DNA of 64,000 nucleotides from Alphaproteobacteria bacterium (GCA_017993335.1 JAGOMX010000001.1:4863-68862), one strand, 5' to 3'; positions 2,930 to 39,600 are shown, counted from the stretch's first letter. Numbers and translations: made by a program. The notes: generated by a model from the letters alone, not told the origin.

Positions 2930-4420
2930 CTAACTAAACAGGTCCCCCAGTGTGATTTCGTTGGTTACCAGAGCGGCTGAGTAATCATTGACATTTAAGC
3001 CTTCGGGGGTGATTAACGTCACATAAATTGGCTTATTGGTCTTGCTGTGTGCCTGATACAGGGAGATTTTGCGTTGGATTTCTTCAGTAATCTTCCTAGT
3101 GAGAGTGAATTTCCCCTGATGAAACTTCATTTCGCATAAATTTATAAGTCCATCCGCTCGGTCAATGAGTAAGTCAATTTGACATCCCTCAGCGCCCTCT
3201 CCACCTTTCTCTTTTTTGGGAATCTCTCGCCAACTGCCGATTTCACTCGAAATAACGGAGATGCCCAGAGCGCTCTTAATCTGTTCAATGTGCTTGAGAC
3301 ATACAGATTCAAAGGCATATCCTGACCAACTTCTCCAGGACTGGGATTGCATTTTACTTTCCCAATAGGATTCATTTTTTAGGGTTGAGGAAAGCCGTTT
3401 AGCCACGGGTTCTATCCATCTTAAATAAAATAGAACATATTCGTCGATTACTCGAAAGAAGGTCCCCTTGTTCAGATTCCCATAGGGCGTGAAACTTAAA
3501 ATAAACCCAGCTTCCTCTAGTTCACCCAGTCGTTTTTTAAACATGCCACCGGAAGAGGAAAGGGAGGCTGCTTTTAAAATCTCATCTCTGGAGATTCCCT
3601 GGCGTGCACGTGAAATTATTCGAATTAGCTCGTTATGAGCTTCAGAAGAATCAAAAAGGGATGAGAATAGCGTTTCAAATTCTTGAAAAAGAAACCCGTC
3701 TTTCTGAAAACACAACCTGTTTAAGCTTTGAGCAACGGAGAATCCAGGAAGGATACCATTCAGGTAATGGGGAATTCCTCCGATGGCCATATAAAGCTCC
3801 ACGACTTGGCGCTTATTGTATTTAACGCCTTTATGTACCAAGTAATCTTGCGCCTCTTTGAGAGTAAAGGGCCTCAACGGCATTATGGCCGTCAATCGAT
3901 TATGCAGCCCTCCTTTGGCGTGAATGAGTGTGTCAATCATCCAAGAGGCTGCCGATCCACAGACAATTAATTTCAGAAATGGCAGGGTTGACCATCTTGT
4001 ATTCCAGTAATAATCAAGAGCCTGGATAAATCCTGACTTCGGCGTTGAAAACCATGGGATCTCGTCTATGAAAATGATGAACTTTTTGGATGATTTCGCT
4101 TCCGAAGCCGTTTTTTCAACAGCCTTCGTTAATAATTTAAAGGCATCCAACCAGGTGTGAGGAGTCTGTAGAGGCGTTCCTTCATAAAAAACCTCAGATA
4201 TCCGCTCTGTGAATAACATAAGTTGCTGGGGAAAACTTCCATCTTTCAGGCCCGTTGCTTCAAAATAGACACATTCCTGCCGCATAAAAAAATTACGGAC
4301 GAGAAAGGTTTTTCCCACACGGCGCCGCCCATAAACAGCAACAAACTCAGCCGAAGGACTCTTAAAAAGCCGCTTTAGGGTAGCTTGTTCTTCCCTTCTG
4401 CCAATGATTAAATCTGTCAT
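2930..4420 (-). CDS. AAA+ ATPase of the Arch_ATPase (PF01637) / DUF234 family
   Basis: 496 aa. N-terminus IIGRREEQATLKRLF...EFVAVYGRRRVGKTFLV is the hallmark start and Walker A of the ATPase_2/DUF234 family. A Walker B-like FIIFIDEIPW follows. Confidence 0.8.
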   Translation of the reverse strand: MTDLIIGRREEQATLKRLFKSPSAEFVAVYGRRRVGKTFLVRNFFMRQECVYFEATGLKDGSFPQQLMLFTERISEVFYEGTPLQTPHTWLDAFKLLTKAVEKTASEAKSSKKFIIFIDEIPWFSTPKSGFIQALDYYWNTRWSTLPFLKLIVCGSAASWMIDTLIHAKGGLHNRLTAIMPLRPFTLKEAQDYLVHKGVKYNKRQVVELYMAIGGIPHYLNGILPGFSVAQSLNRLCFQKDGFLFQEFETLFSSLFDSSEAHNELIRIISRARQGISRDEILKAASLSSSGGMFKKRLGELEEAGFILSFTPYGNLNKGTFFRVIDEYVLFYLRWIEPVAKRLSSTLKNESYWESKMQSQSWRSWSGYAFESVCLKHIEQIKSALGISVISSEIGSWREIPKKEKGGEGAEGCQIDLLIDRADGLINLCEMKFHQGKFTLTRKITEEIQRKISLYQAHSKTNKPIYVTLITPEGLNVNDYSAALVTNEITLGDLFS

Positions 4421-4582: not shown

Positions 4583-4625
4583 AAGTTAGCTCTTTTACAA
4601 ACCGAGTGGGTAAGCTGGATTTTCA
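4583..4625. repeat. 43-bp direct repeat copy 2
   Basis: Matches 1454..1496 with one mismatch (t/g). Confidence 0.7.
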
Positions 4626-4704
4626 GTGAGTATTTATGGCTATAAAGTGTGGGAATCTTCCTATGCTAAAACATATTTGTACTTTATAGCCATAAATACT
4701 CACT
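4625..4704. repeat. perfect 24-bp inverted repeat pair separated by 32 bp
   Basis: agtgagtatttatggctataaagt (4625..4648) and actttatagccataaatactcact (4681..4704). Immediately abuts direct-repeat copy 2. Confidence 0.7.
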
Positions 4705-4719
4705 TTTATATAAACCAAA

Positions 4720-5095
4720 TATGCTCCTGTGGATAACTGGCTTAAGAAAATGTATAACTGACCGCCTTGAACTTATTTTCCCTTATTCATATTTTTACCC
4801 CTCTCTTTTCGATAGGTTATCCACAACTTTTAACATGTGGATAAAAGATGAATCATTTTTTTTATGCGTAAAATATAAATTATTTATACACAACCCATTT
4901 GTTTCCGAAACTGGCTTTTAAATTGCTTTTTAGGGGATTTCTTAATGAATTAATTGATTTATCTACAGCTGTGGATAAAATTGTGATTATTCAAATAGAC
5001 TTGCTCTGCCCTTGTGAATTAGCTATATCAACAGGTACTACTACTATAACTATCTTTTTATATATATATAATAATAGATATAAGGCTTGGGATAA
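4720..5095. other. candidate chromosomal replication origin (oriC/Cori) with four DnaA boxes
   Basis: Perfect TTATCCACA/TGTGGATAA boxes at 4728..4736, 4817..4825, 4836..4844 and 4970..4978. AT-rich tract tatatatatataataatagatat at ~5058..5080. Lies immediately upstream of hemE, the conserved alphaproteobacterial origin linkage. Confidence 0.55.
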
Positions 5096-6130
5096 ATGTC
5101 TGACCAACCGATTTTAAGAGTTTTAAATGGCGAGAGATTAAAAAAACCTCCGTGTTGGTTTATGCGTCAAGCTGGAAGATACTTACCTGAGTATCGAAAA
5201 ACACGTAGCCAGTTTAAATATTTTAAGGATTTCCTTTTTTCAACTCCGGATATTGTTGATGTAACTTTACAACCGTTAAGACGTTTTGATTTAGATGCGG
5301 CTATAATCTTTTCCGATATCCTCGTCGTTCCAATGATTTTAGGTGAAGATGTGGATGTTGTAGAAAGCAAAGGACCTCAACTTTCCAAAATTAATACACC
5401 TGAAGACATTCAGAGACTTTTCTTAAAAGGACATTTTGAAAAGTGTTTACCTATTTATGAAGCGATAAACAAAGTACGATCTCAATTGGAAAAAAATAAG
5501 TCTCTCATCGGCTTTGCTGGCGGCCCATGGACAGTAGCATCTTATATGATCGAAGGGCAAACTAGCAAAACCTTTGCGAAAACAAAAAATTTCGGGTACC
5601 AGTGGCCAGAAGCCTTCCAGAATTTATTAAATATAATCAGTGATATAACAGCAGATCATTTAATCAATCAGATAGATGCAGGTGCAGATCTCATCAAGAT
5701 TTTTGATAGCTGGGCAGGATCTATACCCTATAACCGACAAAATGAATGGCTCGTACAACCTCATAAAAGGCTCGTGGAGCGTGTAAATCTCTCTAAACCA
5801 CACATCCCTATCATTTCTTTTAATAAGGGCTTAGAAACCTCTTATAACACTTATATAGAAAATGTACCCGTTAAAGGTGTGGCAATGGGATCTCCAACGA
5901 ATATAGAATGGGCAGCAAAGAATATTTCTTCACATGTAGCCTTACAGGGTGCCATGGATCCACAATTATTAGTCGTTGGTGGAAAATCAATGATATGTGA
6001 TATTGAAAAGCACTTAATTACTTTTAAAGACAGACCTTATATTTTTAATTTAGGCCACGGTATCGTGCCGGAAACCCCCTTTGAAAATGTTAAAATAGCC
6101 TTAGATACAATAGATAGGATGTGTGCGTGA
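5096..6130 (+). CDS. hemE: uroporphyrinogen decarboxylase
   Basis: 344 aa. N-terminal PPCWFMRQAGRYLPEYR motif typical of HemE. Confidence 0.9.
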   Translation: MSDQPILRVLNGERLKKPPCWFMRQAGRYLPEYRKTRSQFKYFKDFLFSTPDIVDVTLQPLRRFDLDAAIIFSDILVVPMILGEDVDVVESKGPQLSKINTPEDIQRLFLKGHFEKCLPIYEAINKVRSQLEKNKSLIGFAGGPWTVASYMIEGQTSKTFAKTKNFGYQWPEAFQNLLNIISDITADHLINQIDAGADLIKIFDSWAGSIPYNRQNEWLVQPHKRLVERVNLSKPHIPIISFNKGLETSYNTYIENVPVKGVAMGSPTNIEWAAKNISSHVALQGAMDPQLLVVGGKSMICDIEKHLITFKDRPYIFNLGHGIVPETPFENVKIALDTIDRMCA

Positions 6131-7122
6131 AAGCGGTCGTAATTTTTAACCTAGGTGGCCCAGATAAATTAGATAATGTTAAACCTTTTTTGTTTAACCT
6201 CTTTAATGACCCTGCCATTCTATCCATCCCTCAGCCTTTTCGATATTTATTAGCTAAACTTGTGAGTTCTCGGCGAAATAAAAAGGCACAAGGTATATAT
6301 AGTTATTTAGGGGGTAGATCCCCTATCTATCCCGAAACACAAAATCAAGCCGATGCTTTGCAAAAAAAGCTTGGCTCTTCTTATAAAGTTTTTATCTGTA
6401 TGCGATATTGGCATCCGATGATGGAGGACGTCATCGAGGATGTGCTGGCTAGCAATCCTGAAGAAATTATACTTCTTCCCCTTTATCCGCACTATTCTTT
6501 TAGTACCACAGGTTCTTTTTTTGAGGCCTGGAAAAATTGTATGCGAGAGAAAAAAATTGATGTACCGGTAAAAAAAATATGCTGTTATCCTCACGAGAAT
6601 AATTTTATTCAAAGCTGTCGAGAGGTTATCTCTAAAACAGTAAAGGAATGCTCTATACCGCCTCAAGCGCGTTTTCTTTTTTCAGCCCATGGATTGCCCC
6701 AGAAAAATATAATCAATGGCGATCCTTATGAAGAGCAGATCCATATAACCGTCAATCATATATTAAAAGATTTTCCGTCTATCCAAGATCATGTGATTTG
6801 CTTTCAAAGTAAAGTAGGGCCTTTAAAATGGTTGGAGCCCTCAACAGAACAAGAGATTAAAAGAGCTAGCGAAGACGGTGTTCCCGTCGTGATTGTCCCC
6901 ATAAGCTTTGTTTCGGAAAATTCAGAGACTCTCTACGAGTTGGATTATGAATATAAAACTTATGCAGAATCTCTTGGCATAAATCAGTATTACAGAATTC
7001 CCACATTAGGTTATAATACGCATTATATTGAATCCTTGGCGAGTATGGTTTTGAGTGATTATAAAGCTTTATGTGGTGCAGATAGATGCCAGAAAATTTT
7101 TTTACAACAAAAGGCCGCATAA
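6127..7122 (+). CDS. hemH: ferrochelatase
   Basis: Begins (M)KAVVIFNLGGPD, typical ferrochelatase N-terminus. GTG at 6127 with AGGA 7 nt upstream overlaps the hemE stop (GTGA). Alternative GTG at 6121. Confidence 0.85.
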   Translation: MKAVVIFNLGGPDKLDNVKPFLFNLFNDPAILSIPQPFRYLLAKLVSSRRNKKAQGIYSYLGGRSPIYPETQNQADALQKKLGSSYKVFICMRYWHPMMEDVIEDVLASNPEEIILLPLYPHYSFSTTGSFFEAWKNCMREKKIDVPVKKICCYPHENNFIQSCREVISKTVKECSIPPQARFLFSAHGLPQKNIINGDPYEEQIHITVNHILKDFPSIQDHVICFQSKVGPLKWLEPSTEQEIKRASEDGVPVVIVPISFVSENSETLYELDYEYKTYAESLGINQYYRIPTLGYNTHYIESLASMVLSDYKALCGADRCQKIFLQQKAA

Positions 7123-7125
7123 TCT

Positions 7126-7572
7126 ATGGAAATATTTATACCTTACTATGCTTGGATAAAATCTTTTCATATAATTAGCATAATATGCTGGATGGCTGCG
7201 ATGTTTTATTTGCCTCGCCTTTATGTATATCACAGCCAGACAAAACCCCATACGGAAGCCTCAGATCTTTATACGATTATGGAGTCTAAATTAATTCGAA
7301 TTATCATGACGCCAGCGATGATTTCCAGCTATATTTTTGGCATAATGCTTTTACTTATACCGGGTGTCGTTCAATGGTCTGCGGGTTGGATTCATATAAA
7401 ACTTGCTATGGTATTTGTTATGACAGGGTTGCATGGCTTATTTGTTTCTTGGCATAAAAAATTCATCCAGGAAAAGAGAGATTTATCTCATGTGTATTTT
7501 AGGGTTGCAAATGAGATTCCTGTCGTTATAATGGTCGTTATTGTGATTATGGTTGTTGTTAAGCCTTTTTAA
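7126..7572 (+). CDS. hemJ: HemJ-family protoporphyrinogen IX oxidase (UPF0093 membrane protein)
   Basis: 148 aa four-TM protein. [27 protein letters not shown] matches the HemJ conserved N-terminal region. Clustered with hemE and hemH. Confidence 0.75.
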
Positions 7573-7621
7573 GACATCCATAAATCTTTTTCCCTCAACT
7601 TTCCAATCGGTAAATTATATC

Positions 7622-8878
7622 ATGAATATTCGAGATTTAAAAAAGAAAGCCCCGGCTGAGCTATTGCGTATGGCTGAAGAATTAGAAATAGAAAATGCCA
7701 GTACTTTACGTACGCAGGATATAATCTATGGCATATTACGTAAATCTGCTGAACAAGACGTCGCTATTTTTGGACAAGGCATTTTGGAAATTCTGCAGGA
7801 TGGCTTTGGTTTTTTAAGGTCACCTGAGGCAAATTATTTACCCGGGCCAGACGATATTTATGTTTCTCCAAGTCAAATACGCCGCTTTGGTCTGAGGACT
7901 GGCGATACAGTGGAAGGTCAAATTCGTTCTCCAAAAGAAGGGGAAAGATACTTTGCTCTATTAAAAGTTAACACCATCAATTTTGAGCCGCCAGAAAATG
8001 TTAAGAACAGGATCAACTTTGACAACCTTACACCTCTGTATCCTGACGAGAGAATACATTTAGAGTCCAAAGAGCCTACGGATAAAGATCTTACACGTCG
8101 TGTAATTGATATTATATCTCCATTAGGTAAAGGACAGCGCGCTCTTATTACCGCACCACCCCGGACCGGTAAGACAGTTATGTTGCAAAACATAGCTCAT
8201 GCCATTACAGAAAATCATCCGGAAGTCTTCTTAATTGTCTTGCTTATTGATGAGCGGCCCGAAGAAGTTACCGACATGCAACGTTCTGTTAAGGGTGAGG
8301 TCGTTAGCTCCACGTTCGATGAACCAGCCAATAGACATATTCAAGTAGCTGAAATGGTTATAGAAAAAGCTAAGCGGTTGGTGGAATATAAAAGAGATGT
8401 CGTTATTTTGCTTGATTCTATAACGCGTCTTGCCAGAGCTTACAACACCGTAATTCCATCCTCGGGTAAGGTATTAACTGGTGGTGTGGATGCCAACGCC
8501 TTACAACGCCCGAAAAGATTTTTTGGTGCGGCGCGTAATATAGAAGAAGGTGGCTCCTTAACGATTATCGCAACCGCTTTGGTTGATACTGGATCACGTA
8601 TGGATGAAGTCATTTTCGAAGAATTTAAAGGTACGGGTAACAGCGAAATTATTCTGGATCGTAAACTGTCAGATAAAAGGGTTTTCCCGGCTATTGATAT
8701 TACTAAATCAGGTACGCGTAAGGAAGATTTGTTGTTAGATAAAAATGAGCTTTCTAAAACATGGGTTCTTCGTCGTATTTTAGACCCTATGGGACCCAAT
8801 GACGGTATGGAGTTTTTAGTAGAAAAACTTCGTACCACCAAAAGCAACGAAGAATTTTATTTTTCTATGAATACGTAA
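7622..8878 (+). CDS. rho: transcription termination factor Rho
   Basis: N-terminal [27 protein letters not shown] (Rho N-terminal domain). Walker A PPRTGKT. C-terminal RecA-like region. Confidence 0.9.
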
Positions 8879-8894
8879 TGTTTCACGTGAAACA
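8879..8894. promoter_or_regulatory. parS: parS centromere-like site (TGTTTCACGTGAAACA)
   Basis: Perfect 16-bp palindrome identical to the canonical ParB-binding parS consensus. Lies between the rho stop and the rsmG start, upstream of parAB. Confidence 0.75.
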
Positions 8895-8899
8895 AATTG

Positions 8900-9478
8900 A
8901 TGGAAAATTTATCTTTAGATGATGTCCGTGGGATAGAAGCTTATTGCGAGCTTTTAATCAAATGGAATGCCAAAATCAATCTGGTTGGACGTGCCACTAT
9001 TTCCGAAATTAAGGAAAGGCACGTCCTTGATTGTATTCAATTATCTTCCTTTATAAATAAAAAAGAGAGCCTCGTAGATTTGGGATCTGGTGCTGGTTTA
9101 CCAGGAATCTTGCTTTCTATTATAGGGCATGAAGATGTGACTCTTGTGGAGTCTGATCAGAAAAAATGTGTCTTTTTACGCGAAGTGAGAAGGGCTCTCA
9201 ACCTCAAATGTAACATATTAAATATGCGTATTGAGGAAATGAAAGATTGCAAGTATGATTTAGTGGTAAGTAGAGCTTTGGCTTCGTTGAATCTGTTGTT
9301 AGATTTTAGTGAACCCATTCTTAAAGAGGGTGGGAGATGTTTATTTTTGAAGGGAAGTTCTTTTCAAGAAGAAATAGACCTTGCAAAACAATACTGGAGC
9401 TTTAAATATGAAACTATACCCAGTAAAACTGGTTGCGGTGGCGTGATTTTAGAGGTACAAAATATAATAAGGTATTAG
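8900..9478 (+). CDS. rsmG: 16S rRNA (guanine527-N7)-methyltransferase
   Basis: GidB-family SAM-binding LVDLGSGAGLPGILL motif. Conserved position upstream of parAB. Confidence 0.85.
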   Translation: MENLSLDDVRGIEAYCELLIKWNAKINLVGRATISEIKERHVLDCIQLSSFINKKESLVDLGSGAGLPGILLSIIGHEDVTLVESDQKKCVFLREVRRALNLKCNILNMRIEEMKDCKYDLVVSRALASLNLLLDFSEPILKEGGRCLFLKGSSFQEEIDLAKQYWSFKYETIPSKTGCGGVILEVQNIIRY

Positions 9479-9493
9479 CAAGGAGACAATAGC

Positions 9494-10300
9494 GTGCGAT
9501 CCCAAATTATTGCTATCGCAAATCAAAAAGGTGGAGTTGGTAAGACAACAACAGCTATAAATGTAGCCACAACACTTGCTGCGGTCAGAAAAAAAACGTT
9601 ATTAATTGATTTAGATCCACAAGGCAATGCGACGACGGGTTTGGGATATAAAATAGATAACCATTCTATGGGTATTTATGATGTCTTGTCTGGCGATGCA
9701 CATATACAACAGGCTATCGTTGAATCACATATACCTCAGCTAAGTTTGATTCGTTCTTCTATGGATTTATCGGCATCAGAAATTGAGTTGGTATCTGCAA
9801 AAAAACGGGAATTTGTTTTGAAATCAGCGCTTTCCGAAATTATTGGTAGCTATGATTATGTGGTTATAGATTGTCCACCGGCATTGGGATTGTTAACAAT
9901 CAATGCCTTTGTTGCGGCACATAAAGTTCTTATCCCTTTACAGTGTGAATATTTTGCTCTTGAGGGGTTAAGTTCTTTGATTAAGACGATCAGGCGCATA
10001 AAACACGCTTTAAACCCGCCTCTGGATATTTTAGGCATATTATTAACGATGCATGATCGCCGGAGTGCCTTATGTCAGATGATAGAGGATGATGTGCGGA
10101 AAACCCTGGGCGATTTAGTTTTCGATACAGTTATTCCACGAAATGTTAAGGTAAGCGAAGCTCCTTCCCATGGCAAGCCTGTCTTGTTGTATGATATAGC
10201 CTGTAGCGGCTCGCAAGCTTATGTTAAAGTAACGGCAGAAATTCTGAAAAGGATGAAAAATGAATATGAAAATGGCTACGAAAAAAAGTCCGTTAGGTAA
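9494..10300 (+). CDS. parA: chromosome partitioning ATPase ParA
   Basis: GTG start with AGGAGA RBS. Deviant Walker A KGGVGKTTTAIN. ParA/Soj family. Confidence 0.9.
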   Translation: MRSQIIAIANQKGGVGKTTTAINVATTLAAVRKKTLLIDLDPQGNATTGLGYKIDNHSMGIYDVLSGDAHIQQAIVESHIPQLSLIRSSMDLSASEIELVSAKKREFVLKSALSEIIGSYDYVVIDCPPALGLLTINAFVAAHKVLIPLQCEYFALEGLSSLIKTIRRIKHALNPPLDILGILLTMHDRRSALCQMIEDDVRKTLGDLVFDTVIPRNVKVSEAPSHGKPVLLYDIACSGSQAYVKVTAEILKRMKNEYENGYEKKSVR

Positions 10301-11147
10301 AGGTTTATCTGCTCTTTTAGGGCCAGATTTTGAAGATAGCCATAACGATCGCCTGATGTATATTGATTCGGATTTGATTACCATTTCAAAATATCAACCG
10401 CGCACACATTTTGATGAAAAGCAAATAAATGAACTAGCGGCTTCTATCCGCGAGGTTGGAATTTTACAACCGTTGGTTGTGCGGAGCTCGGATCATGGTA
10501 GTTTTGAGTTAATCGCGGGTGAGCGTCGTTTAAGAGCTTCTATTGTCGCTGGATTAACGCAAGTGCCGGTAATTGTTAAAGAGTTTGATAATAAGCAAAG
10601 TTTTGAAGCCGCTTTAATTGAAAATATCCAAAGAACCGATCTTTCCCCCATAGAAGAAGCTTTAGGCTATCAGCAGTTCATAGAAGAATTTAATTATACT
10701 CAAGATCAATTAAGTGAATTTGTGGGTAAAAGCCGCAGTTATCTTGCGAACACACTGCGTCTGCTCAATTTGCCGGACAAAATTAAACGGTATGTACATG
10801 AAGGATTAATTACACCTGGCCATGCCAGGGCCTTGCTTACCGCAGAAAATGCTGATGAATTAGCCGAGGCCATACTCACAAAAAAACTAAATGTGAGACA
10901 GGCAGAGGCGTTATCCAGAAAAAAAATAACAACGACGACACGAAAAACAAAAATTGAAACGTGTGAGGATGAAGATATCCTCTCGCTGCAAAGTCAGTTA
11001 TCTAATATTTTACAGTCAGACGTTTCTATTTTGATTCAAGGACATAAAGGTCAAATCAAAATCGAATTCGAATCCTTGGAACAGTTAGATGAATTGATTA
11101 CAAAACTTTCTTGTATCTCTGATTACGAAAATAGAGAGAAGAAATAA
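10260..11147 (+). CDS. parB: chromosome partitioning protein ParB
   Basis: ParB N-terminal domain with GERRLRA motif and an HTH region. Overlaps the parA end. Confidence 0.9.
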   Translation: MNMKMATKKSPLGKGLSALLGPDFEDSHNDRLMYIDSDLITISKYQPRTHFDEKQINELAASIREVGILQPLVVRSSDHGSFELIAGERRLRASIVAGLTQVPVIVKEFDNKQSFEAALIENIQRTDLSPIEEALGYQQFIEEFNYTQDQLSEFVGKSRSYLANTLRLLNLPDKIKRYVHEGLITPGHARALLTAENADELAEAILTKKLNVRQAEALSRKKITTTTRKTKIETCEDEDILSLQSQLSNILQSDVSILIQGHKGQIKIEFESLEQLDELITKLSCISDYENREKK

Positions 11148-11271: not shown

Positions 11272-11931
11272 TCATAAAAAATATGACTTCAAGATTACTG
11301 CAGCTAAAACTAGCGCCGTTGCATTACGATAAGTTGGTTTTCCCAGCATTCTTGTAATTAATAGTTGCGGCCCATACAGTATTAAAGCTATGACGTTTTC
11401 CCCCATGGGTAGACCCATAAAAATTTCACCTATTGATTTTCGTGTTATTTGGAAACCATAGTTTTGTTCAAGTTTTTCGAATGCAGTTATCATTTGCTTG
11501 TCCATGTTTCCATGCCTGTAGTAGAGGGAACAGAGACAATTGAGAGAGTCTAATGGTCCATATGCTCTCAAAGTATCTTCTGATACGTCATTGGAAAGAG
11601 CGGGTCTTACATAGGAGGCATATAAAATTACATTTCGGTACATATCCTCAGACCAGGGGAACCAGATATCTTCTGACAGGCAAAAGCAGGTAGGCATACG
11701 GTCCACAAAAAGTTTAGACGCTTGTTCCAGATTTTCCGGGTTTAATTTGGTAATGTACTGGGTATCCAAAGTCGCAAGTTTATTATTTAAATCAATAAAT
11801 GACGTTTGTGTATTTTCAGTAACAAATGCTTGTAATGTAGAGTTAGCTCCCTCTATGTCAGAAGCAATTGTCTGCGGACAAAAACTCCACACGAATAAAA
11901 AAACAAGTGCTTTCGTCAGAATATTTTTCAT
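11272..11931 (-). CDS. hypothetical secreted protein
   Basis: Probable start MKNILTKALVFLFVWSFCPQTIAS (signal peptide). No recognisable domain. Confidence 0.45.
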   Translation of the reverse strand: MKNILTKALVFLFVWSFCPQTIASDIEGANSTLQAFVTENTQTSFIDLNNKLATLDTQYITKLNPENLEQASKLFVDRMPTCFCLSEDIWFPWSEDMYRNVILYASYVRPALSNDVSEDTLRAYGPLDSLNCLCSLYYRHGNMDKQMITAFEKLEQNYGFQITRKSIGEIFMGLPMGENVIALILYGPQLLITRMLGKPTYRNATALVLAAVILKSYFL

Positions 11932-12427
11932 AATAATCCCCATAGTTATTGTGAGTTTTCCTATCATTACCAACCTTTATGACTCGACGCAAGTCGATAA
12001 TCTTATCAATAGGCTATTACACAATCTTAGGTTTCTAAAAAGGCTCTATTAACATGATTTCTTTGATAAGTTTCTCGTGGCGTATAAGCTGGAATTACCA
12101 TGGACTCTATGCTTTTAAATGTCTCTTTGGCCCAATCTAGGTCATCATCGTTATCAATAGCCACTGTAACGGTACATATGCTTCCTGGTGTTACTACATG
12201 GCAAACAAGTATTAATTAACCACCTTCTGATTCTGGCGCTCTTATCAAAGTTGCTTTACCTGCACATGCCCCCTTATCAAAAGCGAACACACCTATTACT
12301 TTGAATGAAAAGTCATAATAATTGCGGCCAACATTTTTTCTTGAAAGGTGGGTATCAAATGGGCTACAAATGGCAGACCCTTTGGGTAGACATGTATTTT
12401 ATTCTTTCAATCTTATTGGACTGTCAT

Positions 12428-13618
12428 ATGAAAAAACTTTTCCAAATATTCCTCTCTTTTGTCTTGTTCTTCAGCAGTTCTTTTGCTATTTCCTCCGATG
12501 GATCTGGGCTGCGGAATAGAAAAGCGCCTGTTGTGTATAATTTTATATCGGACGCTACACAACCTTTGTTGGAAGAAAGAGCTCCCCTGGTAACTTATGT
12601 GCAAGAACAGCCGGTGGAGTCAGGGTCGGATACTTTTGAAGGAATTCTCGAGGGTGTGCTTAATCCCATGCAACCAGCCAAGCCATTACATCCCTGCAGT
12701 GTATCGTTTTTAACGGCCAAGCAATCTGCAGAACAGTTTGATGCGGCTGATAAAGGGGACATAAAAGTCCAAAAAGAGATTATTCATAGAGATAATTTGA
12801 TGCTACAATCATGGCCACAGCAAGCTGTTGAAAAATCCATGCATTGGGAGGCCTTAAAAGAAGCCGGGACTGATCCGGCAATAGCTCGCTTTGTGTTCAG
12901 AAAATATAAAAGTCTACCTTGGTTGGATGACCAAAAGATTCAAAATATTTGCCAAATGATTGAGTTGAAAGCCAAAGGCCGAGATCCTCAAGCCTTGTTA
13001 ACTTATAGCAACTTAATTAGCAAGGGGATCTATTTCTCACGCAATGCCCATCTTTCTTTAAAGTGTGTTTTAGAGGCTGGGGTTTTAGGCGAAGCTATGG
13101 GGTACTATTATGCTTTTGAAACCTTAAATATAGCAGGGAAGACTCAAGCGGCTGTCCGATGCGTTCTGATGGCTGCGGAGGCTGGACTTGCTATTGCCCA
13201 GTATGCTGTTTTTATAGCGCATGCGAAGGCATGTGGAAAAATTAAAGACAAACCTAATCTTGTGGAGATAATTGAGCCAACAAAGGAATGGAGCAACTTT
13301 TTAATTGGGAATAGAACCATACGTTTGCATCCTGAGTATGGCTTCATCGGGAAAGAAAATACGGGTATTGTAATGGAGTATCTAGAAAAATCTGCGAATC
13401 AAGGGTTCGTTTTGGCTTTGATGGGACTTGGAGGTTATCAACTCTCGAAGTTTAAACGCCTTCGTCAACAAAAATCCTTGATGACGGCTATGAACGCTTT
13501 TACGAAAGCGGCTGAACTGGGATCTGCCGAGGCTGTGGATTACATTAAAGATATCGAGCTGAACTTTTCCGATAGGAACGAGCCTGTTCAAAAGAGTGTG
13601 ACAAAAGCAATCGAATGA
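12428..13618 (+). CDS. hypothetical secreted protein with Sel1-like helical repeats
   Basis: Signal-peptide start MKKLFQIFLSFVLFFSSSFAISS. C-terminal AAELGSAEA and AAEAGLAIAQY are Sel1/TPR-like segments. Confidence 0.5.
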   Translation: MKKLFQIFLSFVLFFSSSFAISSDGSGLRNRKAPVVYNFISDATQPLLEERAPLVTYVQEQPVESGSDTFEGILEGVLNPMQPAKPLHPCSVSFLTAKQSAEQFDAADKGDIKVQKEIIHRDNLMLQSWPQQAVEKSMHWEALKEAGTDPAIARFVFRKYKSLPWLDDQKIQNICQMIELKAKGRDPQALLTYSNLISKGIYFSRNAHLSLKCVLEAGVLGEAMGYYYAFETLNIAGKTQAAVRCVLMAAEAGLAIAQYAVFIAHAKACGKIKDKPNLVEIIEPTKEWSNFLIGNRTIRLHPEYGFIGKENTGIVMEYLEKSANQGFVLALMGLGGYQLSKFKRLRQQKSLMTAMNAFTKAAELGSAEAVDYIKDIELNFSDRNEPVQKSVTKAIE

Positions 13619-13673
13619 TATGGAAGGGTAGCCTAATTCAGAGACTGTAGCTAATTTCTTCGTAAATAAGTAC

Positions 13674-13718
13674 AGCAAGAAGACTCTTAAAAGGGGCATT
13701 ATCAAATTGCGCTAACAT
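13674..13718. repeat. 45-bp direct repeat copy A flanking SNF2-SWIM cassette
   Basis: agcaagaagactcttaaaaggggcattatcaaattgcgctaacat. Second copy at 17429..17473 (2 mismatches). Confidence 0.7.
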
Positions 13719-13801
13719 AATGATGAATAACCTTGACCAACAAACACCAGAATGTCATTGTCTAACGCAAAACATTGATAATCTTATGAAAAGTAAGGGC
13801 T

Positions 13802-16585
13802 ATGACACTTCCTGCGAAAGTCGAAACTACCTATACTCCACTTAGCATGGCTATTTCGCCAGAGGGAAAGCTGTATTTGAGTCAGAACGAGTTAGCGGGG
13901 GAGTATGTTTCTTATGCTGATATGGAACGGATTAAGGCACTTTTTGTTGAGGGGGATGAGATTGGCCTGTTGCGTTTTGGTTTGACAGAGCTTTCCGAAA
14001 AACTGCCCTTAAGTTTGGACTATTTCTATCAGATCTCCAAAAGTTTCTTCACTGAGGTGTGTAAACTTTCAGGTCTTGACCATTTGTCGGAGAAACAGCT
14101 CAAAGACATCGTCCCTCCACCACAAGAGTTGGAGGAACTGGCCTTGCAGGCCCCTTTTATCGTTGGGGGTGAGTATCTGAATGACTCTTATCTAGCACAG
14201 CTTTGGAAGAAAATGATTAAAGCACTGCTGGTGGAGCTTAACCATTTTGATCATAAACTTGAAAATTATCTGACCGCCCATAATCCCTCTTGGAACAAAG
14301 TGGGACGTGTTTGTTTTCACTTGGCTGAGAATAAAAACAATCCACAACTACCTTTTGCATTTCTAGCGACATACATCAATCGAATGTCCGGGATGGATAC
14401 CCTCAAACATATGACTTTAGGCAAGGCCATGAGGGAGTATGGGGCTGATGGTAAGAATGCGAATCTTCTTTCGATGCTGCTGCCCGTTCAGGGTGTTGCA
14501 GAAAAAAGCCCATTTATTAAAAACCTCGTGGAGACCGGCGCTATTTATCACCCTCAAGGTTGGGATGCAGGGCAAGCTTATCATTTCTTGAAGGCCATTC
14601 CCCTGATTGAAGCAGCAGGGGTGATGGTTAAGGTCCCTAATTGGTGGAATGCAAAGAAACCGCCACGACCTCAAGTCAAGATTTCCGTTGGAAATGAAGA
14701 AGGCCCAACTGTTGGCATGAATGCTTTGCTTGATTTTGAAATGGGCTTTGCGCTTCCTGATGGCGAATCTCTGAGTCGCGCAGAATTCAAGGAACTTCTG
14801 CAAACTCAAGGCAACCTAGTGCAGATTCGTGGTCAGTGGATTGAACTGGATGCCGATAGACTCAATCAGGTGCTATCTTACTGGAAGGATGTCGAAGGCA
14901 AGGTCCAAAAAGAAGGATTGTCGTTTGCACAAGGTCTTCGCCTTATCAATGGCCTGCACAAGAGCTCCCAGCAAAATCCGCTAGAAGAAAATGTTGCAGA
15001 TTGGACCGCCATTTCAGAAGGTCCATGGCTTAAAGAGGCTTTAACAGCTTTGCGTCATCCTGAAAAGGATGAGCTGAACCAACAGATTCAAAGCAAGCTG
15101 AAGTCCTATCTGAAGGCAGATCTCAGACCCTATCAACAGCTGGGTGTGCAATGGCTATGGCATCTCTACTGCCTTCGATTGGGTGGTTGTTTAGCAGATG
15201 ATATGGGGTTGGGTAAAACGATCCAGGTCCTGTCGTTATTCTTGCTAGCCAAGCATATGAATGAAAGTGACAGCCCTCAGCTCAACTTGTTGGTGTTGCC
15301 GGCGTCATTACTGGGGAACTGGGTGGCCGAGGCCAAAAAGTTTGCCCCTGATTTGAAGCTATTGGTTGTTCATAGTTCTTCCGATGGTGTGGATCCTGTT
15401 CAGCTGAAGACGCAACCGGCGTTATCTGGTGTCGATGTTGTTATTACATCTTACGGGTATGTACAACGTTTGCCATGGTTGACGGATGTTCAGTGGAATA
15501 TCATCGTTCTGGATGAAGCCCAAAGCATCAAAAATCCCGGCACCAAGCAAACCCAGCATGTTAAAAAGCTCAAGGCTCATGTGCGCTTTGTCCTGACTGG
15601 TACACCTATCGAAAATCGGTTGCAGGACATCTGGTCTTTGTTCGATTTCACGCTGCCGGGTCTTTTAGGCTCCAGCTCATCGTTTTCCGATTATGGCAAG
15701 AAAATAGCCAAGAAAAACGAAGCTACAGATGGAAAACAAAAGTTTTACGCCGCCATTCGCCATCTGATTAGCCCTTATATATTAAGAAGGCTTAAGACAG
15801 ATAAAAAGATCATTGCTGATCTGCCGGATAAGACTGAAATTAAGGCTTATTGCCCCCTTACAAAACAACAGGCGGCTCTTTATCAGCATGCCGTGGATGA
15901 GCTCAAACGCAGCCTAGAACAAGACATAGACGACATGAAACGGCGAGGGCTTGTGTTATCCTACCTCATGCGATTTAAGCAAATCTGCAATCATCCGAGC
16001 CAATCCCTTGGTCATGGTCAATATGATGGCAACGAAAGTGGTAAATTCATGCGACTTAAGGATATCTGTGAAACGATCGCCTCGAAGCAAGAAAAAGTGT
16101 TGGTGTTTACTCAATATCAGGAGATCATCCCTGCTCTTAGTGAATTTCTCATGGGCATCTTTGGTAAACCTGGTCTGGTGCTCCATGGTGGAACGCCAAT
16201 CAAAAGTCGCCAAAAGTTAGTGGAGACCTTCCAGCAGGATCATGAGTTTCCGTATTTTGTTTTATCTCTCAAAGCGGGCGGAACGGGCTTGAACTTGACG
16301 CGGGCTTCTCATGTGATTCACTTTGACCGTTGGTGGAATCCTGCAGTGGAAAACCAAGCCACAGACAGGGCTTTTCGCATAGGACAAAAGAAAAATGTGT
16401 TGGTCCATAAATTTATATGCCAGGGCACCATTGAAGAAAAGATTGATTATATGCTCGAAACCAAGAAAAATTTGTCCGATCAAATATTGATTCAGGGAGG
16501 GGAAGCTAATCTGACGGAAATGAGCAATGATGAACTGATGAAGCTGGTTCAGCTCGATATCCATCGTGCATTAGGTGAAATGTAA
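13802..16585 (+). CDS. SNF2/RAD54-family helicase (DEAD/DEAH-like ATPase plus helicase C domain)
   Basis: 927 aa with a large N-terminal non-catalytic region. DMGLGKT (motif I), DEAQSIKN (motif II), LTGTPIEN. Helicase-C region LKAGGTGLNLT...FDRWWNPAVENQATDRAFRIGQ. Confidence 0.9.
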   Translation: MTLPAKVETTYTPLSMAISPEGKLYLSQNELAGEYVSYADMERIKALFVEGDEIGLLRFGLTELSEKLPLSLDYFYQISKSFFTEVCKLSGLDHLSEKQLKDIVPPPQELEELALQAPFIVGGEYLNDSYLAQLWKKMIKALLVELNHFDHKLENYLTAHNPSWNKVGRVCFHLAENKNNPQLPFAFLATYINRMSGMDTLKHMTLGKAMREYGADGKNANLLSMLLPVQGVAEKSPFIKNLVETGAIYHPQGWDAGQAYHFLKAIPLIEAAGVMVKVPNWWNAKKPPRPQVKISVGNEEGPTVGMNALLDFEMGFALPDGESLSRAEFKELLQTQGNLVQIRGQWIELDADRLNQVLSYWKDVEGKVQKEGLSFAQGLRLINGLHKSSQQNPLEENVADWTAISEGPWLKEALTALRHPEKDELNQQIQSKLKSYLKADLRPYQQLGVQWLWHLYCLRLGGCLADDMGLGKTIQVLSLFLLAKHMNESDSPQLNLLVLPASLLGNWVAEAKKFAPDLKLLVVHSSSDGVDPVQLKTQPALSGVDVVITSYGYVQRLPWLTDVQWNIIVLDEAQSIKNPGTKQTQHVKKLKAHVRFVLTGTPIENRLQDIWSLFDFTLPGLLGSSSSFSDYGKKIAKKNEATDGKQKFYAAIRHLISPYILRRLKTDKKIIADLPDKTEIKAYCPLTKQQAALYQHAVDELKRSLEQDIDDMKRRGLVLSYLMRFKQICNHPSQSLGHGQYDGNESGKFMRLKDICETIASKQEKVLVFTQYQEIIPALSEFLMGIFGKPGLVLHGGTPIKSRQKLVETFQQDHEFPYFVLSLKAGGTGLNLTRASHVIHFDRWWNPAVENQATDRAFRIGQKKNVLVHKFICQGTIEEKIDYMLETKKNLSDQILIQGGEANLTEMSNDELMKLVQLDIHRALGEM

Positions 16586-16604
16586 GTAAGTAAGGAAAGA
16601 ATTT

Positions 16605-17420
16605 ATGGGGCGTTATGATAACTTTTATCCGGAATATGTACCTGTGGCTGAAAAGAAGAAGCAAGCCGAGAAAAAGATTGCTGCTTTGCGAAAAAAAGGA
16701 ATGGATATTCAACCGGTGGTTATTGAAGGCCAGGCAATCGCGAAAACCTATTGGGGCAAAGCATGGTGCAAGCATTTGGAAACCTACAAGGATTATGCTT
16801 ATCGTTTGGACCGTGGTCGCTCCTATGTGCGACATGGTGCGGTGATCGATTTAAAACTTGAACCTTGTGCCATTCATGCGCAAGTCAATGGTTCATCGCT
16901 TTATAAGGTCAAGATCAAGATAGATCCCGTTCAATCTGCCCGTTGGCAGAGCATTCTGGATTCTTGTTCTGGCAAGATTGGCTCACTTATTGAGTTGTTG
17001 CAAGGTAAGTTTTCTGCGAATGTTATGGAAATTATGACCAATGCAGAGACAGGATTGTTTCCAGGCCAAAAAGAAATCAAATTCGAATGCGACTGTCCAG
17101 ATTATGCGCTCATGTGTAAGCATGTGGCTGCCGTGCTATACGGCATTGGCGCACGTATTGATAACAATCCAGAGGATCTGTTTTCCCTGCGTAAAGCTGA
17201 TTACGCAGATCTTGTTGCCAAGGCAGGAGCAATGACCGCAATTCAACATGAGCTAGATCCCGGCCTTGCGGATGGTGACATTTCTGCCCTCTTCGGCATC
17301 GAAATGGATGCACCCGTGCCTAAAACGAAAGTGGCTGCTAAACCCAAGTTGGTTGCAAAAGCCAAAAAGGCAGTTAAGACAAAAGCGAAGACTGTGAAAA
17401 AGACAGCAAAGAAAGGGTAA
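16605..17420 (+). CDS. SWIM zinc-finger protein with C-terminal Lys/Ala-rich histone-H1-like tail
   Basis: CDCPDYALMCKHVAAVLYG is a CxCx(n)CxH SWIM signature. The last ~45 aa are KTKVAAKPKLVAKAKKAVKTKAKTVKKTAKKG. Starts 20 nt after the SNF2 stop with an AAGGAAAG RBS. Confidence 0.85.
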   Translation: MGRYDNFYPEYVPVAEKKKQAEKKIAALRKKGMDIQPVVIEGQAIAKTYWGKAWCKHLETYKDYAYRLDRGRSYVRHGAVIDLKLEPCAIHAQVNGSSLYKVKIKIDPVQSARWQSILDSCSGKIGSLIELLQGKFSANVMEIMTNAETGLFPGQKEIKFECDCPDYALMCKHVAAVLYGIGARIDNNPEDLFSLRKADYADLVAKAGAMTAIQHELDPGLADGDISALFGIEMDAPVPKTKVAAKPKLVAKAKKAVKTKAKTVKKTAKKG

Positions 17421-17428
17421 TAGGTATA

Positions 17429-17473
17429 GCAAGAAGGCTCTTAAAAGGGGCATTATCAAATTGCGCAAACATA
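17429..17473. repeat. 45-bp direct repeat copy B
   Basis: agcaagaaggctcttaaaaggggcattatcaaattgcgcaaacat. Located 9 nt after the SWIM stop. Confidence 0.7.
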
Positions 17474-17503
17474 CTGGCTTCCAAGGCTTTACATGAGAGA
17501 CAC

Positions 17504-17944
17504 TCATTCCCCTCTTAATCCTTTAAAAAAATCTTGAAGCAATTGTGCGCATAGGGTTTCTTCGATACCGCCATGAACTTCTGGTTTATGGTGACAGGAT
17601 TCTTGTTCATAAATTCTTGGCCCATGTTCAACGCCGCCGCCTTTTGGGTCGTAGGCGCCAAAATAGAGTCTGCGGATACGTGCAAAAGATATAGCTTGGG
17701 CGCACATGGGGCAGGGCTCTAGGGTTACGTACATATCGCATTCTTCTAAACGCATGTTTTGGAAATATTGTGCGGCCAGACGTATAGCTTGAATCTCCGC
17801 ATGGGCTGTTGGGTCTTTGTGTATTTCTACTTCATTGCCGGCGGAGGCAATGATTTGGTTTTTGTGCACGATAACTGCGCCTATGGGGACATCATTATGT
17901 TCTAAAGCTTTTTCGGCTTGAAGGCGTGCAAAGTGCATATACAT
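17504..17944 (-). CDS. tadA: tRNA-specific adenosine deaminase
   Basis: HAEIQAIR and PCPMCAQAI zinc-binding CDA motifs. 146 aa. Confidence 0.85.
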   Translation of the reverse strand: MYMHFARLQAEKALEHNDVPIGAVIVHKNQIIASAGNEVEIHKDPTAHAEIQAIRLAAQYFQNMRLEECDMYVTLEPCPMCAQAISFARIRRLYFGAYDPKGGGVEHGPRIYEQESCHHKPEVHGGIEETLCAQLLQDFFKGLRGE

Positions 17945-36619: not shown

Positions 36620-39600
36620 TTATTTTTCCATCATATTTATAATGGCGTCCCAATTTTCTGGGATGCCTTCGCTGATGAGTTTCTGGCATCTGGTTACGAA
36701 AATATTGGCAACAGGATCTTCTTTACGAATGGCTATGCAGGCTTCAAAGATTTTTTTGGCCTTTGCAATGTCGCCTTTTGTATAAAGTGTAAGGGCTTTC
36801 TCAAAGGAATCAATGTAAGCATCATTCGTTTGTTTTTCCTCATAGGAAGTGGAGGGAAGAACTTCATAGATTGTCATCGCTTTCGTTTTACCTTTAACGC
36901 GTATTTTATCTATTTTTCGAATACTAAATCGGGATGCATCCATAAGTTTATCGTAAGTGGCATCGCTGATTAATAGTTGTGTACCATACATTTTGTTTAA
37001 TCCCTCAATACGGGAAGCGCCATTGACCATATCGCTGACGACGTTGGCTTCGATGCGTTCTTCTTCTCCCAGGGCACAAAGCATGGCTGGTCCTGTATTA
37101 ACGCCAACACCCATCAGGATGCTTGCAAATCCTGCATCGTTAATTTCTTGGTTAAATAAGGGTATAGCTTGTAGCATTTCTACCGCTGCTTGTACGGCAT
37201 CTTGGGATGGGCCGGGGAATAGGGCAAGAATACCATCGCCCAGAACACGATTAATAAATCCATTGTTTTGCCGAATGATAGGAGCCATGTATTTGAGGTA
37301 AGTATTGAGTATGTATGTTAGTTGCTCTGGCTCGATAGCTTCAGATATGGATGTAAAGTCTCGTAGATCTGCAAAAATCGCCGACATTTCAGATTTTGCG
37401 CTATCCCCTATTTGGACTTCTTCAATATTTTTTCTCCCTAAAAGCTGTAAGAACTTTTTCGGAACGAATCTCTCGGTAGCATGAAACAATTGTTGAGTAT
37501 GTTCTAGATAGCGTGCATTTTCCAGTGAAATGGCTATTTGAGTGGAAAGAGTCGAGAGAATTTGGACCCTGTCTGGAGTAAAGGCTTGTGTGGTTAGATT
37601 ATTCTCCAGGTATAAAATAGCCGTAACTTTTTTGTCGCGCAATATAGGAATGCATAGAGCGGATTTAGGTTTGTTTTTTTGTACGTACTCTAGTTTTGCA
37701 TATTTTTCATCGGCACTGATGTCTGAGATAACTTCGGGGCTGCCGGATCTTATGGTGTAGGTTATTAAACCTTCCGGCACAGAGGTGCTTTTTTGAAGAG
37801 GTTCGATAATCTGGCGTACATCGAATGTATCTTTATTCATTTCGGCAATTGTTTCTACCGTCCATACATCACGGCGAAGTCCAATAAAAATAGCTTTTTC
37901 GGCGCCTGCAGACTCGGTAACGACTTTTAATATTTTTGGCAGCAGCTTATCCAGTATGATTTCGCTGGAGATGGCCTGGTTGGCTTTTATCAACGACATT
38001 AAGTCTAATTCGCCCGTCATCATGGTGGTAGAAAAACCGACTGGTGTTCGAGGGGTATTCGAAAGTTTTTGTTTCTGCAGTAAAGTATGGCCATATTTTT
38101 CTTGAAGACGCTTAACTTTTAAATTGCATCCCCACTGTTCAAAAAAATAGATGGCTTCAGAGATGTAGTAGATGGCGGCCCCATGGTACCCCATTTCTAA
38201 ATTCATCTCGCCTAATCTTTCATTCGCTATCGCCGTCCATCGGGTATAAGCATTTTTCTGAGAGACCTGAATAGCGTTGTTATATAAATCAAAAGCTTCC
38301 AGAGTCTTTTTTTGAATACGCGCAAGTTCTGCTTGTCCAAGAAGATAAAGATGTAAAAAATTATCTGGATTGTGATCGGAGAATTTTTTCAGCAGAGAAA
38401 GATATTTATTAATTTCCTTTATAGACTCTGTTTTCTCCTCATCGGAGGCGCTTGGATACAATTGAGCCAAGATCATGATGGATAGCGCGTAATAAATTTG
38501 ATTGCCGATGGATGGATTGTTATAGGTCCTGCTCTGCATGGCCTGTTGAGCGGCATGTTTTGCGAGTTTAAATTCTTCCTCAAAATAATAATTAAATACG
38601 GAAAATAGCCCAAAATCATTTTGTGTCGCCGGAAGAGATTTGCTGACATCGTCTAATGAAAGAGTTTTTTCATCCAGCATGTGTTGTGCACAAATATAAA
38701 CATGCTGAGCCGCATCTATAATATTTTGCATGCGCAAACGATTGCCGATTCGGACATATTCGTTCGCCTTGTTTTTTAGATCTGCCAGTGGGAGATCGGA
38801 AAAGTTACAAAACTCTAAATTTGCATTTATAGACCAGGGAAGATAAGTAAAAGAACCTGTTTCGACCATAGTCTGAATACTTGGCTCAATATCTTGAATC
38901 ATATCCTTTATTTTAGAAAAATAAGCCGCTGTTCGCGTCGATCGGGAGGTGAAAAGAGCTTTTATGGATGCGGGAAAATGCCTGGTTTTTAAGACAGACA
39001 TGCCTCCTTGCCATATGGTCTCGTAACTTTTTAAACTTCCTGTCACCTGGTATTGAATGCGAGCTCTTGAATCTATTAATTGATAGAGAATGTTATCATC
39101 GACGCCATTCTTTTCAAAATAGACCGCGACTCGCATGGTTGCACAATTGGGGAATGTGATGTTACCTCTAAATATGGAGGCAGAGGCCCCTAAAAACAAG
39201 ATGTCCGCCAATACGGCTGTTCGTTCTATATCTGCAGGTTCATTGGTAATTCGCTTAAAAGAAAGAATTTTATTGACGAATGTGCTACCACTTTTGTATC
39301 TCAGGAAGTATTTCATAAACTCATAATAAAATTCTAACATGGATGGATTAAGGGAGATGTCGATGCCAATGATTTTTGTGCCCTTAACTTCCATGCTGAC
39401 AGTTTCTTGGTAATTGCCTAAAGCATTATTGATTTTCATTAAGGATCGATAAACATAGGCGCCTTGTAGGCCCCGTAGTTTTTTTTCTAACAATTTTTGC
39501 CCTTGAGTACGGGCATCTTGATAATCACCTTGTAGATATAAGCACTCTACATATTCTAAATTTAAATGAAAATGTAGTTTGTGGTTTTTATCCCAATCCA

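Follow-up and report, generated by a model that had tools for sequence, protein, structure and literature searches.

A stretch of 64,000 nucleotides (nt) from an Alphaproteobacteria bacterium (GCA_017993335.1 JAGOMX010000001.1:4863-68862), referred to here as the window and numbered from its first letter, carries two adjacent genes on the + strand that encode an SNF2-family ATPase and a SWIM zinc-finger protein. An earlier note on this DNA, made from the sequence alone, had proposed the pair as the strongest candidate in the window for an undescribed DNA-targeting system. The SNF2 gene (13802..16585, 927 amino acids (aa)) was delimited by open reading frame (ORF) calling, Pfam and a PDB match, and the SWIM partner gene (16605..17420, 271 aa) by ORF calling, Pfam and homolog alignment. 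Both ORFs were confirmed, and the gap between them, put at 20 nt in the note, was measured as 19 nt. This spacer (16586..16604, +) forms the operon junction and contains a AAGGAAAG ribosome-binding site; its median length in 77 related loci is 5 nt. An identical SNF2 protein is held at NCBI, where it is labelled 'ATP-dependent helicase' and comes from an Alphaproteobacteria metagenome-assembled genome (MAG). The 183 nt between the preceding ORF and the SNF2 start (13619..13801, +) are the presumed promoter region of a two-gene operon. Since a scan of positions 13400-17700 for the sigma-70 consensus gave zero sites, this promoter is inferred only. A LexA-type box or other SOS signal was not recognisable upstream of the SNF2 gene.

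The SNF2 protein belongs to the Snf2 family of superfamily 2 (SF2) ATPases, as indicated by Pfam matches above the cut-offs for both lobes and by the presence of motifs I, II and VI. Lobe 1 (SNF2-rel_dom, aa 444-733, 15131..16000, +; 215 bits, E 1e-63) holds motifs I and II, and lobe 2 (Helicase_C, aa 752-861, 16055..16384, +; 74 bits, E 2e-20) holds motif VI. The sequences DDMGLGKT (466-473, motif I), DEAQ (571-574, motif II) and QATDRAFRIGQ (852-862, motif VI, running one residue beyond the Pfam match) are invariant in 26 homologs. The earlier description of a complete Snf2 ATPase core is thus correct and, because the three motifs are intact and invariant, the motor is predicted to be active. 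Its top relative in the PDB is the catalytic domain of Sulfolobus SsoRad54 (1z63; 401 bits, E 1e-118, aa 436-920), ERCC6/CSB and Rad26 come next, ahead of INO80 and further chromatin remodellers, and a high score was also obtained for a Mot1-like 'Helicase-like protein'. With 1z63 as top match and a SWIM gene 19 nt downstream, an arrangement found in 78 of 80 related loci, the protein falls into the SsoRad54 / SSO1653-like subfamily of SWIM-associated Snf2 ATPases, a placement based on the top PDB match and the SWIM linkage rather than on a curated subfamily hidden Markov model.

The core is preceded by about 435 residues, described earlier as an N-terminal region of about 450 aa of unknown function. 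This description has to be corrected for aa 249-381, which are covered by the Pfam domain DUF3670 ('SNF2 Helicase protein', 14546-14944, +; E 7e-30), so that the region is partly annotated and the description only partly right. Two segments can be distinguished. The first (aa 1-197, 13802..14392, +) is conserved across 26 homologs and specific to the split form of the system, in which motor and SWIM protein are encoded by separate genes. It has zero Pfam matches and zero sequence matches in the PDB, and its AlphaFold2 predicted local distance difference test (pLDDT) values are mostly 72-89. The second (aa 198-383, 14393..14950, +), delimited by Pfam and hhalign, contains DUF3670, is common to fused proteins described below and includes the motifs PNWW and GQW, both invariant in the homolog alignment.

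The SWIM partner is built around an extended module (aa 44-208, 16734..17228, +) that comprises a WGKAWC…RLxRGR motif, a three-strand sheet, helices and the Zn finger. The zinc ligands follow the pattern CxCx6CxH (C162, C164, C171 and H173; 17088..17123, +) and are invariant in 21 homologs, and the Pfam SWIM match (aa 162-179) is weak, yet above threshold. On these grounds the CxC...CxH finger recognised earlier was upheld, and with its CxCxnCxH signature within the SWIM fold the protein is a member of the SWIM zinc fingers (PF04434).

Behind this module, the protein ends in a polycationic tail rich in K, A, T, P and V (aa 231-271, 17295..17417, +), which was delimited by pLDDT and composition and is predicted to be disordered (AlphaFold2 pLDDT <50). 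Past an LFGIE motif (about aa 234-271, about 38 residues), 37% of the residues are K or R and the net charge is +13. The tails of 98 of 111 close homologs have a net charge of at least +8 (median charge +14, median length 50 aa), as do 118 of 136 tails among representatives of the family at 50% identity (median 132 aa), in which AKT/KPA-type repeats are frequent. Across the family, the composition of the tail is kept and its sequence is not, which is the pattern expected for non-specific binding of a polyanion such as DNA. The basic tail is a family hallmark of the split form. Its resemblance to histone H1, pointed out in the note, is compositional, since Pfam finds no linker-histone (winged-helix) domain in the SWIM protein, which is thus not an H1 homolog; read in this way, as a disordered tail conserved family-wide, the observation holds.

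The partner family comprises 6,989 clusters at E <=1e-3 and 1,622 at <=1e-30, counted as 50%-identity clusters in a search of 1.84 billion representatives. A short segment of the window protein (aa 67-107, 16803-16925) matches the 566-aa profile of the PADLOC defence candidate PDC-S62 with E 9e-8. This suggests that PDC-S62 may carry a related SWIM-associated N-terminal module.

Conservation of the pair in split and fused form

A scan of one genome per species yielded at least 591 loci with a relative of the SWIM protein, the best 80 of which were analysed. These 80 loci span more than 10 phyla and include Alpha-, Beta-, Gamma- and 'Delta'-proteobacteria, Acidobacteriota, Chlamydiae, Planctomycetota, Verrucomicrobiota, Myxococcota, Lentisphaerae and Nitrospirae. 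An SNF2 homolog lies immediately upstream on the same strand in 78 of them. It is full-length wherever the contig suffices, and the full-length matches are 44-57% identical to the window SNF2. The two exceptions are a contig without room for an SNF2 gene and a short contig (L025) with a different ORF upstream. The two genes are at most 50 nt apart in 68 of 77 loci, and the commonest spacer measures 3 nt. This degree of adjacency is far beyond chance and bears out the statement that SNF2-SWIM pairs recur in bacteria. None of the 10 neighbours of the pair in the window recurs beside it in the 80 loci. Because these neighbours do not travel along, the pair is regarded as a self-contained two-gene module.

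The largest gap between the two genes measures 1.3 kb (L033:5662-6997) and holds two small overlapping ORFs of 84 and 163 aa, which, judged by eye only, resemble an antitoxin and a PemK/MazF-like toxin.

Both components also occur as a single polypeptide. In a gene from a Wolbachia WO region, annotated as 'SNF2/RAD54 family helicase', the N-terminus of the encoded protein aligns to aa 46-208 of the SWIM partner (BLASTP, 31% identity, E 8e-26). Behind this SWIM segment come DUF3670 and the Snf2 core, with 34% identity to the window SNF2 from aa 262 on. When the first 540 aa of this protein were used as a query, the fused architecture SWIM-PF26921-DUF3670-SNF2 was found in about 39 of the 120 best matches, from Wolbachia, Holosporales, Verrucomicrobiota, Bacteroidota, Spirochaetes, Endozoicomonas and others. 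Profile comparison with hhalign relates the split SWIM partners to the fused N-terminus (probability 99.9%, E 5e-35) and aa 198-383 of the split SNF2 to the fused DUF3670 region (probability 97%, E 1e-10). For aa 1-197 of the split SNF2, the same comparison detected no counterpart in the fused proteins.

The SNF2 and SWIM genes form one functional module, as their conserved adjacency, the short spacers and the natural fusions show. They are predicted to be co-transcribed or translationally linked and are co-inherited across phyla, and the split and fused forms are Rosetta-stone equivalents.

A different fusion was found in the protein P0095 (462 aa), in which a SWIM partner carries a C-terminal DNA-3-methyladenine glycosylase I domain (PF03352). 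It is encoded at L083:3021-4409 and L084:662-2050, in two independent Joint Genome Institute (JGI) samples of one lineage. The L083 copy lies directly downstream of an SNF2 gene; the L084 contig ends within the upstream gene. This fusion hints at a link of the SWIM partner to base excision repair.

Genomic setting of the pair

The window is core chromosome with a housekeeping context. The pair is preceded by genes for a thiolase, hemE, hemH, hemJ, rho, rsmG, parA and parB and by two unannotated ORFs, and is followed by tadA, comF/gntX, an aspartase/fumarase, a permease and accC/accB. Further along lie mgtE, a malic enzyme, a P-type ATPase, hslU, ccmF/ccmC, hscA/hscB, iscS and lysS. No integrase, transposase or phage gene was found among about 45 scanned ORFs of the window, and tRNA genes occur only at 35.3 and 52.4 kb, at least 18 kb from the pair. 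The mobile-cassette context assumed earlier is therefore not supported, as these ORFs are housekeeping genes.

In related loci, the genes around the pair were surveyed with 130 flanking ORFs, taken from close relatives only and called crudely. These ORFs are heterogeneous and mostly metabolic, and no Pfam family occurs in more than three of them. PADLOC gave sporadic matches with at most two members per family, in what is a small sample of close relatives without background control. Six contexts with Pfam annotation are mostly housekeeping as well (gltA, trx, thrS, parA, purB, topoisomerase IV and proAB), and toxin-antitoxin modules lie beside the pair in two of these six (L085 and L089). Phage records contain the SWIM partner in two weak matches out of 50,697, and a viral fold search gave no match reaching E 0.001. 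A fused copy is present in a Wolbachia WO phage record.

Several further features of the window were observed. Two ORFs between parB and the SNF2 gene, 11272-11973 (-, 233 aa) and 12305-13618 (+, 437 aa), have no Pfam or NCBIfam match and are absent beside the pair in the 80 loci; they may be lineage-specific orphans. The block hemE-hemH-hemJ-rho-rsmG-parA-parB (5096-11147) is presumably the gene set found around the replication origin in Alphaproteobacteria. The window may therefore adjoin the replication origin oriC. The cumulative GC skew climbs steadily along the window. A giant ORF of 1,758 aa (36620-41896, -) has a Ser/Thr protein kinase at aa 21-259 and an AAA_16/STAND-like NTPase at aa 299-486, followed by GAF (aa 1315-1458) and adenylate/guanylate cyclase (aa 1501-1675) domains. 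For a genome of about 41% GC that may be that of an intracellular bacterium, it is an unusual multidomain signalling protein. At 2930-4420 (-) lies an orphan 496-aa ATPase of the ATPase_2/AAA_16 type. An ATPase_2 gene with a faint DUF234 match is also located just downstream of the pair in L085, a parallel that is probably a coincidence.

Proposed mechanism and competing explanations

The pair is proposed to be a two-subunit, SWIM-associated and SsoRad54-like translocase on double-stranded DNA (dsDNA) that is tethered by its tail and probably displaces protein-DNA complexes in transcription or repair. A probability of roughly one half is assigned to this reading. The SWIM subunit would dock on the N-terminal part of the motor, because the fused SWIM segment sits directly N-terminal to the DUF3670 region and the split SNF2 has about 200 additional conserved aa, which could stand in for the covalent link. 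The lysine-rich tail would keep the complex on duplex DNA in a sequence-nonspecific manner, and the motor would track along dsDNA without strand separation, by analogy with SsoRad54. By pulling DNA past the tether or by pushing bound proteins, it would generate force or torsion that displaces or repositions protein-DNA complexes. The likeliest arena would be chromosomal housekeeping, with the complex acting on RNA polymerase that is stalled or trapped and on further roadblocks where transcription, replication and repair meet.

A role at stalled transcription complexes and other roadblocks is favoured because of the housekeeping contexts, the apparent retention in intracellular bacteria, the kinship of the motor with ERCC6/Rad26 and the data connecting Bacillus subtilis YwqA with RNA polymerase, which are described below; the transcription link is drawn by analogy only. 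Regarding retention, the pair is kept in Candidatus Bealeia and in MAGs from Chlamydiae, Parachlamydiaceae and Legionellales, groups some of whose members are obligate intracellular bacteria. The SNF2 phylogeny has a clear taxonomic signal: for 34 of 61 sequences the nearest neighbour shares their phylum-level group, compared with 8.6 expected by chance.

Several observations weigh against this reading. The flank survey behind the housekeeping contexts draws on a limited sample of 80 loci, the docking of the SWIM subunit is inferred from the order of the fused domains only, and the link to RNA polymerase is weak because YwqA may belong to another Snf2 subfamily and the window SNF2 is without a RapA-like N-terminus. 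The remaining 27 of 61 nearest neighbours (44%) cross group boundaries, which corresponds to frequent horizontal transfer, and the closest relatives of the window SNF2 itself are found in MAGs of Gammaproteobacteria and Chlamydiae and in Candidatus Bealeia. These relatives fit an exchange of the pair among intracellular or amoeba-associated bacteria. The GC content at third codon positions (GC3) of the SNF2 gene is 0.47, the highest of the window's 49 ORFs (mean 0.38, standard deviation 0.04, z about +2.1), and that of the SWIM gene is 0.43 (z about +1.2); the raised GC3 of the pair is a weak hint of horizontal acquisition and not decisive alone. The SWIM partner is also encoded on 118 of 72,556 plasmids (0.16%), 56 of them typed as conjugative. 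Many of the carriers are large replicons of Bradyrhizobium, Streptomyces and Cupriavidus, with 38 records from Bradyrhizobium plasmids. One of these is the conjugative plasmid pBjCNPSo31a of Bradyrhizobium japonicum (L081), in which genes for a RecD-like helicase, a small hypothetical protein, SNF2 and SWIM follow each other on one strand (4599-10975), near ScpB and a DUF1403 gene. In Mycobacterium tuberculosis, helZ and Rv2102 are lost together in the deletion RD178. Transfer, high GC3, plasmid carriage and this loss together give the picture of an accessory and dispensable pair, as defence or plasmid functions would also present themselves. We therefore read the pair, from its distribution, as a widely retained yet dispensable and transferable accessory module rather than a strictly vertical core gene.

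A more far-reaching version of the proposed translocase can be put forward only tentatively. The pair would be a minimal prokaryotic remodeller, in which an SsoRad54/ERCC6-like motor is anchored on the nucleoid by the linker-histone-like polycationic tail of the SWIM subunit, aa 1-200 of the split motor serve as a new docking domain for that subunit, and ATP-driven DNA pumping evicts or slides nucleoid proteins or RNA polymerase. Such a system would be a widespread bacterial counterpart, and possibly an evolutionary precursor, of the eukaryotic Snf2 remodelling complexes.

The main rival is a dedicated repair or recombination factor, which owes this position to the Tag glycosylase fusion in two samples and which we consider possible, if rather doubtful. 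Here, the motor would act on stalled forks or DNA damage, remodelling them for example through branch migration, through annealing or by exposing lesions, and the SWIM protein would act as an adaptor for damage or DNA structure. The eukaryotic SWIM proteins Shu2/SWS1 act in Rad51-paralogue complexes, and ERCC6/Rad26, to which the motor is closely related, are factors of transcription-coupled repair. RecD-like helicases are neighbours in two of the 130 flanking ORFs and in the gene row of pBjCNPSo31a. HelZ is listed among DNA-repair proteins in a proteomics paper on M. tuberculosis, by annotation only. The glycosylase fusion is limited to a single lineage, however, no LexA-type box is evident upstream of the pair, and no repair gene recurs among the 130 flanking ORFs. 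In Deinococcus deserti, a SWIM gene induced by radiation is part of a VWA/CoxE operon, does not adjoin an SNF2 gene and probably belongs to another SWIM family. The text of the preprint by Price et al. reports no cisplatin phenotype for such a pair.

The role in anti-phage or anti-plasmid defence suggested in the note, with the SNF2 protein scanning or degrading invading DNA and the SWIM protein as its sensor, appears unlikely. SNF2 ATPases do occur in Zorya, DISARM, Dpd and BREX, and ZorD and DpdE are the strongest PADLOC matches of the window SNF2. The weak match of the SWIM protein to PDC-S62, the frequent transfer, the raised GC3, the toxin-antitoxin modules in two of six annotated contexts and the apparent insert in L033 could all be read in the same direction. 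Nevertheless, the PADLOC and NCBIfam matches are limited to the ATPase core, except for one ZorD model that overlaps the end of DUF3670, and they fail the cut-offs. The ZorABC, Drm, Dpd and Brx partners, a nuclease and a methylase are absent from the window, and none of them is recurrent elsewhere. According to Pfam, neither protein has an effector domain. PADLOC matches among the 130 flanking ORFs, a small sample of close relatives, are only sporadic, phages are almost devoid of the SWIM partner, the window context is housekeeping, and homologs from different phyla retain 44-57% identity to the window proteins, with a taxonomic signal. The defence hypothesis thus finds no support in this analysis, and immunity against phages or plasmids is less likely than a housekeeping role.

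A benefit to mobile elements is less probable still. According to this explanation, the pair would serve plasmid establishment, anti-restriction or the remodelling of incoming DNA, and chromosomal copies would stem from integrated elements. The plasmid and WO phage records described above, the position on pBjCNPSo31a beside a RecD-like helicase and near ScpB, and the placement of SWIM-associated Snf2 ATPases in mobile systems by Iyer et al. are in its favour. Against it stand the low share of plasmids that carry the gene, many of them large replicons, the near absence from phage records and the lack of mobile-element genes in the window and in most sampled loci. That the two genes are mere neighbours with independent functions, as the different ORF upstream of the SWIM gene on the short contig L025 might suggest, is highly improbable and effectively refuted by the conservation and fusion data, namely the adjacency in 78 of 80 loci across phyla with spacers of typically 3-5 nt, the widespread fusion proteins and the joint deletion of both genes in M. 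tuberculosis.

Comparison with known systems

The window copy is a typical member of a large, long-recognised and functionally uncharacterised family, and the locus itself is no discovery. The note's description of an undescribed system does not hold in this respect, since the link between SNF2 and SWIM has been on record from the naming of the SWIM domain, which refers to the bacterial SWI2/SNF2 ATPases and the MuDR transposases that contain it (summarised in PMC10236294). The SsoRad54-like Snf2 group is itself defined in the literature by SWIM association, and Iyer et al. describe the occurrence of such ATPases in mobile systems. No mechanism for SNF2-SWIM pairs was found in a literature search, in agreement with the statement that none has been assigned. 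The family comprises about 7,000 SWIM clusters at 50% identity and spans most bacterial phyla. Among prokaryotic proteins, its motor is the one most closely related to the solved SsoRad54 core and to eukaryotic ERCC6-type remodellers. New here are the lysine-rich tail as a hallmark of the split form, the equivalence of split and fused forms, and the restriction of aa 1-197 of the motor to the split form. These family-wide regularities provide handles for experiment.

The profile search for an already characterised system, proposed in the note as a possible refutation, placed every nearest curated NCBIfam family below its cut-off. The nearest is the actinobacterial SCO1167/SCO6262 helicase (NF058637; 542 bits against a cut-off of 1200, aa 269-918 only), of which the window SNF2 is not a member. 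It is followed by the pilus expression-regulating Snf2 helicase (NF053675; 357 against 1100, aa 395-915 only), ZorD (295 against 1500), DrmD (104 against 950 and 57 against 610), RapA (52 against 576, lobe 2 only) and DpdE (35 against 500).

SsoRad54 (1z63) has the closest solved core. Only its catalytic core has been solved and studied; this domain is reportedly an ATPase stimulated by DNA that moves along the duplex and leaves the strands paired. In the window, by comparison, about 435 further conserved residues lie at the N-terminus of the motor, and a SWIM subunit that ends in a basic tail is encoded separately. The fused SWIM-(PF26921)-DUF3670-SNF2 helicases have a homologous SWIM module, DUF3670 and the Snf2 core in common with the pair and are likewise uncharacterised. 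They differ from it in being single polypeptides with the SWIM module at the N-terminus and a PF26921 middle region in place of the first 197 residues of the split form. HelZ (Rv2101) and Rv2102 of M. tuberculosis are adjacent genes that were compared by description only. We take HelZ to have a DUF3670 + SNF2 architecture, and one source labels the SWIM-module protein P0405 of the family as 'uncharacterized protein Rv2102'.

Escherichia coli RapA/HepA, an Snf2 ATPase that acts on the RNA polymerase complex, is the functional analogy most often invoked. However, the window protein is without the N-terminal domains of RapA, and RapA is without a SWIM partner. The B. subtilis Snf2 protein YwqA is among the RNA polymerase interactors and has been described as a 'poorly characterized' RapA/HepA homologue. 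A PcrA pull-down in which RpoA, RpoB and RpoC were found as well enriched it 19-fold. YwqA presumably has a SWIM finger, and presumably an SNF2_assoc-type N-terminus rather than DUF3670. Its likeness to the window SNF2 is that both are bacterial Snf2 proteins.

The defence proteins ZorD, DpdE, DrmD (DISARM) and BrxH have the Snf2 core in common with the window SNF2, which matches ZorD (E 7e-130) and DpdE (E 8e-118) most strongly in PADLOC. PDB 8qy7, which we take to be ZorD, scores 235 bits against the motor. In contrast to these systems, the window lacks their partner genes and a nuclease or Mrr domain. No MotAB-like or ZorC genes of type I Zorya flank the pair and the SNF2 protein has no nuclease domain, no dpd genes were found nearby, and the DISARM partners drmA/B/C and the methylase are absent in the window. 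Membership of the SNF2 protein in Zorya, Dpd or DISARM was rejected, since the PADLOC matches are essentially restricted to the core and the scores of the NCBIfam equivalogs fail.

Among eukaryotic proteins, ERCC6/CSB-Rad26, Mot1, and ZSWIM8 and other SWIM proteins differ from the pair in all of their accessory domains and partners, and the SWIM likeness is one of fold only (16% identity). For the tail, counterparts are found in AlgP, Hc1 and actinobacterial HupB, whose K/A/P/T-rich, disordered and strongly cationic tails would bind DNA non-specifically. This likeness is one of composition and not of homology, and the window tail differs from these in being placed on an ATPase-coupled SWIM module.

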